A DNA stretch of 64,000 nt, from positions 1 through 64,000 of the forward strand of contig CAXHJY010001128.1 of the NCBI GenBank assembly GCA_964016885.1, in the 5' to 3' direction. The position numbers and the translations under genes were made by a program. This DNA comes from Eledone cirrhosa. Lineage: Eukaryota. This document shows, in pieces, positions 31,676 through 64,000 of this stretch (positions are counted from its first letter, which is position 1; each line of letters opens with the position of its first letter). A model generated the notes under the pieces. That model saw only the letters and a list, made by a program, of their open reading frames with translations. It was not told the DNA's origin and did no database searches.

Positions 31676-31785
31676 GGGATGTTTGTATTGAACATCTATA
31701 AAATAGGACAGCTTGGGGATAGAACCCAAGCCTGAACACAATGCCCCTTTACATTTCAGTGTGTCTGTGTAATATACATACATAC

Positions 31786-34696
31786 ATAGTCGTAGGCAAG
31801 CGTCTTAGCTATAAGCTATTCTGGGTAGGTAAGGATGATGGGTTAGAGGGAGTAGGCATTTTCCTGGCTGAGAAATGGATCAATAAGACAATAGAGGTAG
31901 TTCGAGTTAGTAATCGAATAATTAAGCTTAGATTAGTTGTAGGTAGGAGACTACTGACAATCATCTCGGTCTATGCTCCCCAAGCAGGCCTAGGCAAAGA
32001 TGAGAAAGACTGCTTTTATGAGCAACTTTTGCAAACAACCACAATGACAGAGGACGGAGACATCGTTATGCTAGCAGGAGACTCCAATGGTCATGTTGGA
32101 CAGCTCCAGGATGGTTACACTGGGGTACATGGTGGGCACGGTTACGGTTCAAGAAATGAAGAAGGAGCGAGACTTCTTGAATTTTGTGATGCAAGTACAT
32201 TGACTATTTGCAACACAAACTTCCAGAAACCTGCCAACCACCTAATAACATACAAATCTGGTGAGCACATAAGCCAGATTGACTTCCTGCTAGTTAGGCA
32301 GTGGGACAGGCAGATAGTGTCTAATACCAAGGCATACCCTGGGGAAGAATGTACCCCACAGCATAGGTTAGTTGTTAGTGATATCTCAGTAAGCAAGAGA
32401 TGGAATGAGACATATAGGAAGGTGTGGAGAAGAAAGGTCTGGAAGCTAAAAGACCTTTCACTAAAATTCAAATTTAGGAAAGCCCTTCAAGATGTATATG
32501 ACGAAAAAGAAGACGATTTAGAGACGTATGACATAGATAATAACTGGAAGTTCTTACGTGACAACTTGCTGAAGGCTACTGATGAAACCTGTGGCTGGAG
32601 CAGAGCTCCAACCAGACAGAGAGTGACCTGGTGGTGGAACAGCAGTGTAGATAAGGCTATTAGAGACAAAAGACTAGCATGGAAGGCTTGGAATAAGGGT
32701 GGGAGTAGGGAAGAATATACAGCCACTAAGAGAGAAGCTAGACGTCAGGTGTACTTAGCACGCAGGGAGGCAGAGAGTAGGAGGTTTGCCAATGTTCTGC
32801 GACGGGAAGATCAGAGGCGTGCGGTGTTCCACATTGCAAGGCAGTGTGTCAATGCAAATCAGGATGTTGTTGGTGATAAATGTGTCCGGGATGATGCCGG
32901 TGTACTTAGTGTCACGAATGACCAGAAAAAGGAGGCCTGGAAATGTCATTATGAGAGACTGATGAATGTGGAGAACGAATGGGAGAGAGAGAAATTACCC
33001 TTGGTAGATCCGACAGAGGGACCAGCTATTGAGATTGACGAATATAGGGTCCAAGAGGCGATTAGGGAAATGAAAAATGGTAAGGCTGCCGGACCATCGG
33101 GAATAGTTGCTGAGATGCTGAAGGCATCAGGGGACGTAGGCACTAAACTGGTTGCACGCATAATCAATCAGGCTATATATGGTGGTGTCATACCCAAAGA
33201 CTGGTGCAGCAGTATTCTCATAAATTGCTACAAAGGTAAAGGGGATGCTTTGGAGAGGAGCAATTATAGGGGTATAAAACTGATAGATCAGGTTATGAAA
33301 GTGGCAGAAAGGATTTTAGCACAGCTAATTAGAGAAAGGGTCAAACTAGATGAGATGCAGTTTGGTTTTGTGCCTGGGAAGAGTACAACAGATGCCCTCT
33401 TCTTGGTGAGACAAATGCAAGAGAGGTTCTTAGAGAAGAATAAGCCACTATACTTAGCCTTTGTTGACCTAGAGAAGGCCTTTGATAGGGTACCCCGATC
33501 TGTCATCTGGTGGTCCCTAAGGAAGCTGGGTGTTGAGGAATGGCTTGTAAGGACAGTGCAAACTTTGTACAGAGGTACTCTCAGTAAAGTCAGGGTAGGA
33601 ATGGAGTTTAGTGAGGAATTCCAGATACAAGTAGGAGTACATCAGGGTTCGGTCCTCAGCCCGCTCTTGTTCATTATAGTCCTCCAAGCCATAACAGAGG
33701 AGTTTAAGACTGGCTGTCCATGGGAACTTCTCTATGCTGACGATCTGGCTCTTATGGCAGAATCAGTAGAGGAGCTAGAGAATAAATTCCGGCTATGGAA
33801 ACAGCAGTTGGAAGCAAGAGGACTGAGAGTAAATCTAGCTAAGACAAAAGTGTTGATGAGTAGAAAAGAGGACAAAACCCTGATTCCGTCAGGGAAATGG
33901 CCATGTTCGATATGCAGAAAAGGAACTGGCATAAATTCTATAAAATGGTCCTGGGTACACAAGAGATGTAGCGGGATAGCAGGCAAACTAACAGGTAGGG
34001 AGAAATATGTATGCAGTAGATGTACAGGGAAATTAGACAGTAGAAGTCGCACTGATAGACACATTTTTCAAATGCGAGAGGGCGCTATAGAAGTGGTGGA
34101 TAGCTTCCGGTACCTAGGAGATCAGATTAGCATGGGAGGAGGGTGTTCCGGGCATAGTATCTAGAATAAGGACGGGTTGGAAGAAGTTTAGGGAGCTGCT
34201 TCCTCTGTTGACGAAGAAGGGTTTCTCCCTGCGTACGAAAGGCCGGTTGTATGATGCCTGTGTGAGGAGCGCGATGCTGCATGGTAGTGAGACATGGGCA
34301 GCTACCGCAGAAGATATGCGACGGCTGGAGAGAAATGAGGCAAGCATGCTCCGTTGGATGTGCAGTGTAAATGTGCGTGAACGACCCAGCATAAATGTGT
34401 TGAGAGAGAAACTGTGTCTGAGAGGGATAGAATGTAGTGTACGGGAGAGGAGACTGAGGTGGTATGGACATGTGATGCGCATGGAGGATGACCGATGGGT
34501 GAAGAAGTGCCAGGAAATGCCAGTTGAAGGAAGACGTGGTAGAGGTAGACCACGAAAAACATGGGCGGAGGTGGTGAGAACAGACCTCAGATCATTGAAG
34601 CTCACGGTGGAGATGACGAGGGACCGTGACGAGTGGAGAGATGCTGTGCTGAATAAGACCCGTCCCACCCTTGCAAGCAGGGAAAAGCGGACGTAA
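31786..34696 (+). pseudogene. RTE endonuclease/reverse-transcriptase ORF, 5'-truncated, one frameshift near 34150
   Basis: ORFs 31741..34164 and 34208..34696 join across a frameshift; the Cys-rich motif also looks shortened (NSIKWSWVHKRC). Confidence 0.92.
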
Positions 34697-34720
34697 AATG
34701 ATGATGATGATGATGATGAT
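31786..34720 (+). mobile_element. Young 5'-truncated RTE LINE (family A), ~2.9 kb
   Basis: APE motifs (YAPQ, GDxNGH, IDF, HRLVV), RT motifs (QFGF, DLEKAFD, GVHQGSVLSP, YADD at 33733-33744), Cys-rich region, (GAT)n tail 34699-34720; begins mid-APE at a CATA microsatellite. Confidence 0.97.
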
Positions 34721-34902
34721 ATATAATAATAATACTATTTATAGTTATGTATATAGATAGTATAAACAACTATAAACAGGAAGGTCAGTAATTTCTTATT
34801 ACCTTATTACCAGTAGGAGAAATAGCTCAATGTATGAACATCAGTTGTTATACAGAGCAGGAAAATAAATCAATTATACAATTATCAAAGTTGTGTTCAA
34901 AT

Positions 34903-43847: not shown

Positions 43848-44038
43848 AGGATAGTGGATTGGCAGAATTGGTAGCGCGTGGGACAAAATGCTTCACAGTA
43901 TGACCAAGGTCAACTTTGCCTTTCATTCCCCCAGGGTTGATAAAAAAAAGTACCAGTTAAGTACTGGAGTTGATATTATTTGCTTTTCACTTCCCCACAA
44001 TTGTTGGCTTTGTTCCAGTGTTAGAAATCATTATCATA
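43848..44038 (+). mobile_element. tRNA-like SINE, internally deleted
   Basis: TGGCAGAATTGGTAGCG head and GGTCAACTTTGCCTTTCAT core. Confidence 0.75.
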
Positions 44039-57985: not shown

Positions 57986-60900
57986 ATGGGGATCTTAACC
58001 TTCTCGCTAACTACCCAATATCCCTCCCACCCGCCCCCACGCACCACCATTATAACGTGGGCCAATCATAAGTCAGAGGCCTATGCTATCGCTTACCTGA
58101 TTGCCTTTCATGATGGATAGACTACGGAATTCTGGAGAGTTTGAAAAGAAAAAATTTGGACACTCAGTGACAATGCCAAAGATAAAGACAAATTCACCTC
58201 ATGGACGAGAATGCAAGGACTCCTCCTCTTTGTTTCGGCCGCGGATGGCTAACATACCCCCCCCCCCCCCTGCACCCCACCGCTCCCACCCTCCAAACGC
58301 AATCCAAAACTTCAGAGTTGGTACCATGAATGTAGGCACCTTAAAGGGTCGCTCTAACGAGGTTGTAGAAATGCTTGAACGTAAGGAGGTCGATGTCTGT
58401 TGTATTCAAGAGACCAGGTGGAGGGGAGGGTCTGCTAGATTCATCGTGGGTAAAGAACGATGCTATAAGCTTTTCTGGGTGGGAAATGACAATGGGCTGG
58501 GTGGAGTAGGAATCATGGTAGCAGAAAAGTGGGCAGATAAGATAATAGACGTAAATAGAGTGAACGACAGAATAATGAAAATAAGACTTGTCCTCAATAG
58601 AACTACTGTGACAGTAATATCTGCGTACGCACCCCAATCCAGACTGCCCGGCACTATAAAAGACAGATTCTATGAGACACTGATGCTCACTACCTCCCAA
58701 ATAACTGACAGTGACTATATAATTATTGCTGGCGACCTAAATGGTCACGTTGGACAACATTGTGACAGCTATGATGGAATCCATGGAGGCTATGGGTTTG
58801 GTACTAGAAATGAGGAAGGCTCCAGAATCCTGGAATTCTGTGACGCAAATAACCTAACTATCTGTAACACTAACTTCAAAAAACGAGACAATCACTTGAT
58901 CACCTATGGATCGGGGAACACACAAGCCAGGTAGATTATATCCTTACCAGGAGACGTGACAGAGTGTCTGTCGTAAACACTAAATCCCTCCCTCATGAAG
59001 AATGCACCTCTCAACATACTCATAATTAGCGACCTCATAGTCAGGACAAGACGTATTCGACAACAGAAGAGGACTATCCTCAGGAGAAAATTATGGAAAT
59101 TAAGGGAGCCCGCAGCCAGTAATAAATTTAAAAGCATATTACTTGATGCTTTTGATAGTAAGGAAGAGCAATTAGTCGTACAATATAGAGGAACAGTGGG
59201 AATTCCTGAAAGCTATCCTGCTGAAGGCGACAGATGAAACCTATGGCTGGAGCAGGCCTATAGGCAGGAGGAGAGTAACTTGGTGGTGGAACATTAAGGT
59301 GGAGAGGTCAATCAAGGCCAAAAAGCAGGCTTGGAAAGCATGGCGAGATGGGGGAAGTAGAGAAGACTATCAAGTGGCCAGGAGGGAAGCTAGGAGACAA
59401 GTGTACTTCGCAAGAAGGGAAGCAGAGGAAAGAAAGTTCAAGCATGTTCTACAACGCGAGGACCAAAAACGTGAGGTGTTCAGGATTGCTAGGCAATGTG
59501 TCAAGGAAAGCAGTGATATTGTCGGGGAGAAGTGTGTCCTTAATGATGATGGTGTACTTGCCATCACTGACACTGATAAGAAGGTAGCTTGGAAGTGTCA
59601 CTACGAAAGGCTACTAAATGAGGAGAATAATTGGGAGAAAGACAGTCTCCCTCACATCAACCCAATAGAGGGACCAGCAGTGTAAGTTGAAGGTAGTATA
59701 ATAAGTAAGGCGATCAAAGACATGAAGACGGGCAAGGCGGCCGGGCCTTCGGAAATAGTTGCCAAAATGCTGAAAGCATCTGGAACGGTGGGACACACTA
59801 TGGTCACCCAGATAGTAAACCAAGTCATACAGAATGGGGTCGTTCTGAAGGACTGGCACAGCAGCATCATCATTAACTGCTACAAGGGTAAAGGTGAAGC
59901 CCTAGATAGGGGAAACTATAGAGGCATTAAATTAATTGACCAGGTCATGAAGGTTGCAGAAAAAGTAATAGCGCAACTAATCAGAGAGCGAATTGATCTA
60001 GATGAAATGCAGTTCGGGTTTGTGTCAGGTAAAAGTACAACAGACGCTCTTTTCATTGTACGACAACTACAGGAGAAGTACCTAGCTAAAAGTAAATCCC
60101 TATACTTAGCTTTTGTTGACTTGGAGAAAGCCTTCGACAGAGTCCCCCGTTCCATTATCTGGTGGGCTCTTAGAAAACTAGGTGTTGATGAATGGCTTGT
60201 GAGAGCTATACAAGTCATGTATAAAGAAACAGTCAGCAAGGTTAGAATTAACAAAGAATATAGTGAAGAGTTTAGCGTAAAAGTTGTTCATCAGGGCTCC
60301 GTCCTTAGCCCCCTACTATTTATTATTGCCCTTCAGGCGATAACAGAGGAGTTCAAAACCGGCTGCCCATGGGAACTCCTATATGCAGATGATCTAATGC
60401 TCATAGCTGAATCAATGGCTGAATTAGAGAAGAAATTCCAAACATGAAAGCATGGCCTAGAATCAAAAGGCCTTAAAGTTAACTTGTCTAAGACTAAAGT
60501 TCTAGTTTGTAGGAAGGAAAATAAGGCACCGGTCCCATCTGGGAAATGGCCATGCTCAGTGTGTAGGAAAGGAATAGGTAGAAACTCCATTTTATGTCCC
60601 AAATGCAAAGATGTAGTGGGATCACAGGTAAGCTAACTAAGAATATAGATTTTATATGTGGCTGGTGCTCTGGTGCAATAAGTAGCAACAAGTGCCCACA
60701 GAATACTAACTCATTCTATTGCACAGATGGTTCTATAGAAATAGTGGACAGCTTCCGTTACCTGGGTGACAAAATCAGCAGTGGGGGAGGGTGCTCTGAA
60801 AGTACAGTAGCTAGAGTCAGAACGGGATGGAAAAAGTTCAGAGAGCTTATACCACTATTGGTCGCTAAAGGGTTTCTCTAAAAATGAAAGGCAGGCTGTA

Positions 60901-61701
60901 TGATGCCTGCATACGAACAGCAATGTTACATGGCAGTGAGACCTGGGCATTGTGTGCAGAGGATATACGCAGACTGGAGAGAAACGAAGCTTGCATGCTC
61001 CGCTGGATGTGTAATAGTAATATACGTGAACGGCAAAGCATAAACGAACTAAGGGAGAAATTAGGAATAAGAGGGATCAGATGTTGTTTACTCGAGAGAA
61101 GACTACGTTGGTATGGTCACGTGATGCGCATGAAAGACGACAGCTGTATAAAAAAGTGCAGGGCAATAAAAATAGACGGTAGCCACGAAGTAGGCAGACC
61201 CAGAAAAACCTGGGATGACTTGATAAATTCCGACCTCACACACTTACACCTCTCCAAGACAATGTCACTGGACCGAGATCCTTGGCGCTACACAGTAATA
61301 GAGAAGACGCGCCTTACCTAAGTGCAAAGTGAAACCTACTACAGTCAGGAGGCACCTCTAACAAAATACACCCCCGTCCCACTACCCCCACCCCATCCAC
61401 ACCACCCCTTTCAATGTAAAGTTGTTGGTACCACAACATCCAGCCCGAAACAAATGAGGTCGTGTAGGTGTCAAGACAAAAAAACACAGTCCACGCTGTA
61501 ATGTGGCCGTGTAGGTAACACGGTAAAAACCTCCCAGTCCACACTGTAAATGTGGTTGGTGTTAGGAAGGGCATCCAGCCGTAGAAAACCTGCCAGACAG
61601 TCCTATGCCTCAACCACTCTTGCTTCAGGTGGGAAAACTCCCGTCCAAACCCATGCAAGCGTGGAATATGGACGTTAAACGATGATGATGATGATGATGA
61701 T
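57986..61701 (+). mobile_element. Near full-length RTE LINE (family B), disabled; 5' boundary approximate
   Basis: APE in 58101..58934 (GTMNVGTL, QETRW, YAPQ, GDLNGH); RT in 59722..60447 (YADD 60382-60393); C-terminus 60884..61321; several frameshifts and stops; 3' UTR and (GAT)n tail 61681-61701. Confidence 0.96.
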
Positions 61702-61737
61702 CTATACATTTATATATATATATTTATATATATATGT

Positions 61738-62101
61738 ATATACGATATTAATAAATGGAAACTATATTTATAAAACCATATTTATTTCATTATACATATT
61801 TCAGGGATACCAAATTAAAATATGGTATGCCTTCATCAGACATAATACAATATATAAACAGTTTTATAAATAATTTTGACGTTCCCTATTAAATGCAACC
61901 ATTATTTTTGGAAGCTGTCTGGATAGTGAAATGTTTATATTATTTTATTAGTTATATTGTTAAGCACAATTAGAAAAAGACGGAGCGAAAAAACGGAGAG
62001 AGAGAAGGAGAGAGAAAGAAGGTATTTGGTATCCCTGAAATATGTATAATGAAATAAATATGGTTTTATAAATATAGTTTCCATTTATTAATATCGTATA
62101 T
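61738..62101. repeat. Perfect 78-bp inverted repeat with a 208-bp spacer (Penelope-like inverted pseudo-LTR arrangement)
   Basis: 61738-61815 is the exact reverse complement of 62024-62101. Confidence 0.93.
61784..61850 (-). ncRNA. Minimal type I hammerhead ribozyme-like motif
   Basis: Minus strand reads UAUUAUGU-CUGAUGA-AGGCAUACCA(UAUUUUAAUU)UGGUAUCCCU-GAAAU AUGU AUA^AUGAAAUAAA; perfect core and 9/10-bp stem II, but weak stem I. Confidence 0.65.
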
Positions 62102-62185
62102 CTACTCCAAAAACTTGTCGAGTGCTTTATATCAGTTATAAAATATTTACTTGTTGTATCCCAACAATTTTAAATAGAACTTTTG

Positions 62186-62307
62186 CATATATATGTATAT
62201 ATATATATATGTATTTATATATATATTTATATATATATATATATGTATTTTTATATATATATTTATATATATATATATATGTATTTATATATATGTATTT
62301 ATATATA

Positions 62308-62377
<70 letters not shown>

Positions 62378-62571
62378 GGAACAAGTAAGATTGGGTAATA
62401 GGAACAAGTAAGACCCCGACGGTTGAGCTCAAGCCGTCGGGGTCTTGTTCCTATTACCCACTCTACTACACTAAGTATTGAGTACTTTGGAGCGTTATGG
62501 TCCACCTGGTTCCTTACTACATTTCCTTCGTTATATATTTATATATATATATATATATATATTTTTATATA

Positions 62572-62612
<41 letters not shown>
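62186..62612. repeat. (TA)n/(TTTA) tracts flanking a ~155-bp island (62378-62531) that contains a long hairpin
   Basis: Direct sequence. Confidence 0.9.
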
Positions 62613-62613
<1 letters not shown>

Positions 62614-63134
62614 GATATAAATACGGCTCCTTAATTGGAGAGCTATTTCTGTTGAAGGGAATTTGACTGCTATTTCTAGTTGTCGAAAACCTATTCACGC
62701 CACTGAAATGAAGCTGCTGTGATGTGTAGAGGCAACACGTGGTAGCGGATAGTTGAAGATTTGAACTCGCTGTGTGAGCATGGATCGCTGGACATTATTC
62801 TTCCTTGTTGACAATCCAATAATATCCACTTTCCGTGACTTACCATCTGATTAATTGGTGAAATATATTTCTTTAATGGGATATATACAGGGAAGATTAA
62901 TCATACTTAAAGGTATATGTTTATTTGTACCCAACTAGCCATGCGTGGTTACACGCTTGTAAAAATTATCTCCTGTGATTATCCATGTATATATATGTTA
63001 ATAAATTTCTAGTTATTATAAAATGCTCGGACATATCTTTGACCTTATTTCCATGCGATATGGCGCACGCCGTTATGGCACGACACCCACAATTTCGATT
63101 TAGATTAAATTCATTTAATTTATCTTAATTTTGG

Positions 63135-63185
63135 ATATAGATATATATATATTTATATATATATATATTTATATATATATATATT

Positions 63186-63218
<33 letters not shown>

Positions 63219-63311
63219 ATATATTTATTTATATATATATATTTATTTATATATATATTTATATTTATATATATATATTTATATATATATATATTTATAT
63301 ATATATATATT

Positions 63312-63368
<57 letters not shown>

Positions 63369-63369
63369 T

Positions 63370-63400
<31 letters not shown>

Positions 63401-63447
63401 ATATTTATATATATTTATATATATATATATTTATATTTATATATATT

Positions 63448-63478
<31 letters not shown>

Positions 63479-63567
63479 ATTTATATATTTATATATATAT
63501 ATTTATATATTTATATATATATTTATATATATATTTATATATATATTTATATATATATTTATATATA

Positions 63568-63612
<45 letters not shown>

Positions 63613-64000
63613 ATATTTATATATATATATATTTATATATATATATATTTATATTTATATATATATTTATATATATATATATTTATATATATATATATTT
63701 ATATATATATATATATATATTTATATATTTATATATATATATATATATATTTATATATTTATATATATATATATATATATTTATATATTTATATATATAT
63801 ATATATATATTTATATATTTATATTTATATATATTTATATATATATATATTTATATATATATTTATATATATATATATTTATATATATATATATTTATAT
63901 ATATATATTTATATATATTTATATATATATATATTTATATATATATATTTATATATATATATTTATATATATATATATTTATATATATATATTTATATAT
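63135..64000. repeat. A/T-only (TA)n microsatellite with TTTA interruptions, running to the window end
   Basis: No G or C after ~63140. Confidence 0.98.

Follow-up and report, generated by a model that had tools for sequence, protein, structure and literature searches.

The window, that is, the whole 64,000-nucleotide stretch analyzed here, consists of animal-type DNA with several RTE-type LINE copies. Downstream of the (GAT)n tail of one such copy, a cassette is located within a TA tract, the left part of which (61703-61742) directly follows the (GAT)n tail and the right part of which covers 62187-62377. The longest exact inverted match is a perfect 78-bp repeat (61738-61815 versus 62024-62101), and no further real copy of this arm was found elsewhere in the window. 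The arms are separated by a 208-bp spacer, which is the 5' continuation of the left copy and contains the other half of a ribozyme. Copy 1 (61743-62023, minus strand) is the 5'-truncated 3' end of an element, of about 281 nt, with a complete ribozyme, no tail, and a 3' end running into TA. Copy 2 (plus strand, 163 nt) is composed of an arm of 78 nt (62024-62101), identical to 61815-61738 and without the CUGAUGA half of the ribozyme, followed by an 85-nt 3' extension (62102-62186), hereafter the tail, which many but not all family members possess. The arm begins at the mirror of 61815, inside loop 2 (61822-61813). The tail is found at one end only, the left flank being without it, and folds no better than shuffled sequences (z -1.15). 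An initial annotation of this locus had already described the perfect inverted repeat and the start of the second arm in the stem II loop, and both descriptions hold. Its statement that both 3' ends point into (TA)n is correct for the left arm, which does so directly, but the right arm continues for 85 nt of the same family before reaching TA.

A 15-bp direct repeat flanks the cassette as a weak candidate target-site duplication, with a left copy at 61728-61742 and an identical right copy at 62187-62201 (plus strand); this sequence is found a single time per flanking tract, as against 292 occurrences in the TA array at 1-27150. From the identity of the arms, divergence is bounded at about 1.9% per arm, and three near-private changes in the 208-bp spacer (61843, 61883 and 61957) are consistent with this bound, so the earlier description of the insertion as young fits. 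As annotated, no meaningful ORF is present in the cassette, nor in the 184 nt upstream of the hammerhead core. A linked RT or GIY-YIG ORF, proposed with the annotation as something to look for, was found neither in the cassette nor, by a Pfam scan, among 79 window frames of at least 58 aa from 34700 onward; in these frames, from which most RTE frames were excluded, the scan returned the RTE endonuclease, three sub-threshold hits, and nothing else.

Several other features of the window were recorded. A second cassette between TA tracts (62378-62531) contains a near-perfect hairpin (62393-62460, z about -8), with unequal arms that both point outward to TA and no CUGANGA motif; it looks like the head-to-head truncated end of another TA-targeting element. 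Unique islands in TA tracts are located at 62624-63140 and 16020-16152 (single-copy in the window, as checked for 62624-63140), and they are possibly other microsatellite-targeting retroelement ends. Positions 1-27152 form a degenerate TA/TG array of 27 kb that is strongly strand-biased, the GC skew being near +0.9 in many bins. Within it, two near-identical 1.06-kb truncated RTE 3' ends (5650-6707 and 9876-10939), differing mainly by homopolymer indels, could be explained either by array duplication or by assembly duplication. Positions 31723-34734 and 58101-61700 are occupied by long RTE-type LINE copies, both frameshifted and both with AP endonuclease and RT domains, and the repeat near 43860-44030 is presumably a tRNA-type SINE. 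Such a SINE, the RTE LINE tails, and the huge TA arrays would suggest an octopus-like host.

On the minus strand of copy 1, a type I hammerhead was delineated at 61783-61847 from a descriptor match and from family variants, with the core elements CUGANGA, GAAA, and UH present in type I order. From 5' to 3', the 5' strand of stem I (61847-61840, paired with 61790-61783) is followed by the core CUGAUGA (61839-61833), stem II (61832-61823 paired with 61812-61803), GAAA (61802-61799), and a helix III made of a self-complementary octamer (61799-61792), with U at 61792, A at 61791, and the predicted cut at 61791/61790. The motif AAUAAA (61786-61781) lies within the 3' strand of stem I. The core, the cut site, and the adjacent AAUAAA thus match the initial annotation. 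The 10-bp stem II that it also described needs correction, as 9 of 10 pairs are formed, with a C x C mismatch at 61829/61806. AAUAAA was also considered as a poly(A) signal, a reading that is unsupported, as the observed 3' ends run into TA and not into poly(A).

Two computational checks proposed with the annotation gave different outcomes. The type I descriptor, which was written post hoc, had a single match on both strands of 27150-64000, at the cassette site, and any match to this post hoc descriptor was obtained in only 1 of 300 local shuffles. The Rfam search (E <= 10, 58000-64000) returned nine weak matches, none of them to a hammerhead family.

In this copy, stem I has 7 of 8 pairs, the exception being an A x A mismatch at 61843/61787. 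It is caused by a near-private substitution at 61843 that breaks the fourth pair of the stem, since nearly all other copies carry the pairing base: 604304 of 604396 summed depth in run X1, 271.5 of 271.5 in X4, 181.3 of 181.3 in X6, and 2910 of 2943 reads in X11. Alternative registers of the ribozyme were considered, one with a cut after GAAAUA and one with stem I shifted by four, the latter corresponding to the minimum-energy fold. Both were set aside, since the base that the family carries at 61843 restores pairing in the chosen register and disrupts the shifted one. Read in this way, the family base supports the cut site at 61791/61790 and would mark this copy as damaged. The minimum-energy fold of the copy is not a hammerhead (-13.4 versus -2.2 kcal/mol for the constrained monomer), a gap that would be expected of a dimer-type ribozyme and does not prove activity. 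A minus-strand transcript of the whole locus is predicted to fold into the 78-bp duplex, with loss of the hammerhead. The ribozyme in this copy is predicted to be impaired.

Variation among copies provides a second view of the motif. Among the 40 top-ranked variants listed of 93, there are 14 variable places in 61783-61847, one of them mirrored from the right arm, and all 14 avoid the 12 core positions that are invariant in the consensus (p=0.04, hypergeometric test). The only variable core position among these variants is N7, which takes U, C, and A, a change allowed by the consensus. At 61843, the family base turns the mismatch into a Watson-Crick pair and brings stem I to its full 8 bp. Wobbles become Watson-Crick pairs through the changes at 61788, 61841, and 61795, the last of them giving a perfectly palindromic helix III, the change at 61813 adds a pair, and 61804 and 61826 remain wobbles. 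Taken alone, changes at 61803, 61810, or 61831 (without its partner) each break a stem II pair. Seven of ten single changes at stem or stem-adjacent positions therefore keep or improve pairing, and one of the other three is compensated in X4, where 61804 and 61831 together replace G-C with A-U on both sides of one stem II pair. The co-occurrence of these two changes is deduced from depth (100.3 for both, from two contigs that correspond to records 9 and 11 and span both sites). Judged from these variants, helices I, II, and III can form and seem to be kept among copies, and the ribozyme core is apparently under constraint; loss of the core among copies, one of the outcomes that would have spoken against the annotation, was not what the listed variants revealed.

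The family was followed further in sequencing runs. The run search listed 13 runs, 10 of which contain the stretch or part of it, with no RNA run among the listed holders. Four were mapped: X1 and X11 (both organism A), X4 (organism B), and X6 (organism C). Runs X5 and X7-X10 (organisms A and D-G) carry small shares and were excluded from counts. Copies were found in 6,154 contigs of X1, 35,851 of 12.5 million reads of X11, 83 contigs of X4, and 20 contigs of X6. Because summed contig depth is not a copy number, and because X1 is possibly related to the window's own sample and X11 is a reduced-representation library, the family is described as high-copy without a figure. The cassette belongs to a very abundant repeat family sitting in TA microsatellites, and the thousands of family contigs dispose of the concern, raised with the annotation, that the sequence might be single-copy. 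Exact-pattern scans for the 3' half of the ribozyme gave no match in viral contigs, metagenome contigs, or prokaryote genomes.

Two alternative 3' ends are found in the family, TA right after 62101 (5,281 reads in X11) and the 85-nt tail, which is at high depth in all four runs; they lie 48 and about 133 nt beyond the predicted cut site. A loose end before 61745 (948 reads in X11) appears to represent a tail variant of about 25 nt, whose two ends seem to coincide with those of the 85-nt tail (at a consensus agreement of only 0.61). With respect to orientation, 12 of the 15 joints listed are head-to-head inversions with varied breakpoints, one is tail-to-tail through TA, two are artefacts produced by the mirrored arms, and head-to-tail joints are absent from these 15 (29 more joints lie beyond those listed). 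Record 1 of X1 is a second locus carrying both arms. A direct partial-tandem pseudo-LTR is absent from the locus, and no such joint is found among the 15 listed. The intervening letters at a joint from 61804 to 62035 (X1 and X11) point to a possible subfamily in which the same GAAA core adjoins another stem II 3' strand.

These features are probably best explained as one insertion made of two 5'-truncated 3' ends (281 and 163 nt), placed head to head, of a longer TA-targeting Penelope-like element (PLE), in which the hammerhead is a conserved terminal-repeat motif that is predicted to be impaired in this copy. The locus presents 5' truncation, an inverted 5'-truncated copy, and a tail at one end, as in endonuclease-bearing PLEs. 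Both the motif and the architecture of the family support the annotated reading of a Penelope-like terminal region that carries a type I hammerhead and was inserted in TA together with an inverted partial copy. All of the enzymatic steps are borrowed from published PLE biology. The RT/GIY-YIG protein of a master copy would nick (TA)n on both strands, and reverse transcription would prime at two internal RNA sites, namely an internal TATAT (62097-62101), which matches the TA target, and a site 85 nt further 3'. Both cDNAs would stop early and would be joined 5' to 5', that is, head to head. As the tail of the right copy is absent from the left flank, the right copy is not a simple fold-back and would need a priming event of its own. 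In the tandem precursor RNA of the master, two ribozymes may associate via their palindromic helix III to form a cutting dimer, perhaps assisted by protein. Cutting is unlikely at the present locus, which has only one complete ribozyme, with a disrupted stem I (61843); moreover, in any transcript containing both arms, the ribozyme's 3' half would be sequestered within the 78-bp duplex.

Whether the family derives from a longer element bears on a competing explanation, namely a dedicated short non-autonomous PLE derivative of about 300-400 nt that would be ORF-less in every copy and mobilized in trans by a PLE protein. It would account for the lack of an ORF in the 184 nt upstream of the core, most of the mapped sequence lies within the last 130 nt plus the tail, and precedents among PLEs are described in two sources (Chlamys MRC1, PMC8557442; preprint 10.64898/2026.07.22.740005). 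However, depth decays steadily 5' of the ribozyme (in X1, from a summed depth of about 2.0 million at 61770-84 to 8,800 at 61980-94), without a fixed 5' boundary within the mapped stretch, a decay that may partly reflect divergent subfamilies below the 80% mapping cut-off. The absence of an ORF may therefore reflect truncation only; the stretch retained upstream of the core is so short that all of it could be 3' UTR. No 5' continuation of the element was given by the mapped contigs. A dedicated derivative is accordingly a possible but rather improbable explanation, and the label "non-autonomous" in the annotation was not borne out, as the gradual decay is that expected for random 5' truncation of a longer element. 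A bolder form, in which a very high-copy, ORF-less, hammerhead-bearing Penelope derivative ("PLE-SINE") with an unusually long 85-nt tail has colonized the TA arrays of this lineage, is regarded as doubtful. If it were true, its 5' ends and inverted pairs would form a genome-scale record of whether ribozyme-cut RNA ever templates transposition, and the family would be a large source of perfect double-stranded RNA hairpins.

The role of the ribozyme can be approached through the ends of the copies. No mapped 5' end among 24 is within 2 nt of the cut, 14 being downstream and 10 upstream in this small sample, which is biased to short arms. As copy 1 also spans an uncut ribozyme, these data do not demonstrate a ribozyme-processed template, and with 3' ends 48 and about 133 nt past the cut, the annotated "ribozyme-processed" character was not sustained. 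The same annotation had raised a non-LTR retrozyme, that is, a monomer of a head-to-tail tandem whose RNA self-cleaves, circularizes, and retrotransposes. Such an element would agree with the type I hammerhead, its palindromic helix III, and the ORF-less sequence, and solo monomers are described in preprint 10.64898/2026.07.22.740005. This reading is nevertheless unlikely, and the term "retrozyme" was dropped: none of the 15 joints listed is head-to-tail, the listed loose 3' ends at 62101 enter TA, and no tandem unit of retrozyme-monomer size is present at the locus.

The symmetry of the locus, with its perfect inverted repeat, TA flanks, and missing ORF, could also suggest a DNA element of the MITE or fold-back type that has inverted repeats at its termini, targets TA, and carries the hammerhead as a passenger. 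Yet the right arm is non-terminal because of the 85-nt tail, and the spacer extends the left arm in the 5' direction and holds the other ribozyme half. Arm lengths and breakpoints vary between copies, many of which are single linear ends, and the variable breakpoints largely refute this very improbable reading. An assembly fold-back artefact, a chance hammerhead motif, or both (suggested by 100% identical arms, a junction at 62023/62024 that adjoins a masked stretch and is outside the coverage of the four mapped runs, the empty Rfam result, and the post hoc descriptor) is hardly credible given the same architecture in independent contigs and reads, a tail that cannot derive from left-flank fold-back, variants that respect core and stems, and the single matching shuffle of 300. 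For copy 1, family coverage extends over 61740-61985, and 61995-62022 were masked as repeat during mapping.

The paired, truncated ends of a PLE thus stay the preferred reading. Their architecture is that of published PLE anatomy, in which head-to-head truncated ends are already described, and would therefore be unsurprising to a specialist. The value of the family lies elsewhere: its abundance and apparently constrained core make it testable from genome sequence whether 5' ends pile up at the cut site, and it supplies natural stem variants for dimer cleavage assays.

Among known systems, PLEs are characterized in PMC8557442 by truncation at the 5' end, by an inverted copy that is likewise 5'-truncated, and by a tail on one side only, of 30-40 bp there and of 85 nt in the cassette. 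For the anole Poseidon element, PMC11167929 reports that the tail is delimited by two RT start sites, that cutting and extension take place on both strands, and that the hammerhead is protein-assisted with a predicted dimer; this in vitro study found the hammerhead dispensable for insertion. What the hammerhead does in endonuclease-bearing PLEs is described as unclear in PMC8557442. In cephalopods, 31 recently active Penelope-like families are reported from O. vulgaris (PMC13282606). A literature search combining hammerhead and octopus found no paper on such a family, and the cassette family may already have an entry in Repbase or Dfam, or in the Zenodo library for O. vulgaris that PMC13282606 cites. 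Nine short cassette motifs were compared with the consensuses in the supplement of PMC8557442, giving three matches in unrelated contexts and no family match, a comparison in which the 70-letter line wrap may hide matches.

Minimal and type I hammerheads in the pseudo-LTRs of metazoan PLEs were reported, together with a dimer model, by Cervera and De la Pena (2014; PMC4209133). As with the cassette, helix II is larger than usual and helix III palindromic, truncated PLEs leave scattered single motifs, pairs on opposite strands occur at distances of 100-700 bp, and the families show abundant covariation. The minimal forms differ, as they are described there without helix III, which is present in the cassette as an 8-nt palindrome; stem I is 8 bp in the cassette family, and the closing pair of stem II is A-U instead of the usual G10.1-C11.1. 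Non-LTR retrozymes (preprint 10.64898/2026.07.22.740005) are likewise non-coding, PLE-related, and equipped with a type I hammerhead, but are defined by head-to-tail tandems, whereas the joints listed here, artefacts aside, are only head-to-head and tail-to-tail. Naiad (Naiad_Obim, Naiad_Ovul) and Neptune PLEs share the microsatellite or (TA)n bias, tandem or inverted insertions, and a tail (by description for Neptune). Naiads are without a canonical hammerhead, unlike the cassette family, which sets the family apart from them, and the cassette bears no resemblance to the 3' ends that precede the Naiad_Ovul and Naiad_Esco headers.

PLEs of the Hydra clade, including Hydra-1_Obim and Penelope-13_HM, carry canonical type I hammerheads about 80-200 nt from the 3' end (measured from the start of the listed motif), with a mostly palindromic helix III and (TA)n targets (Craig et al. 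2021; PMC8557442). Helix III is 3-4 bp long with a 1-3-nt, mostly palindromic loop, and a U often precedes GAA, as in the cassette; Penelope-13_HM also carries a 5'-truncated inverted copy in this account. Differences from the clade lie in the longer stem II of the cassette (9 of 10 pairs versus 3-7), in its 85-nt tail, and in position 15.2, which is U in the cassette and C in all Hydra rows examined, and the cassette hammerhead sequence matches none of the rows examined from that source, including Hydra-1_Obim. At the protein level, the clade is defined by RWK, DKT, and CxCX5C motifs and by the lack of CCHH. Altogether, the cassette likely works like a PLE terminal region, and its ribozyme layout and TA target appear closest to those of the Hydra clade, to which it may or may not belong.
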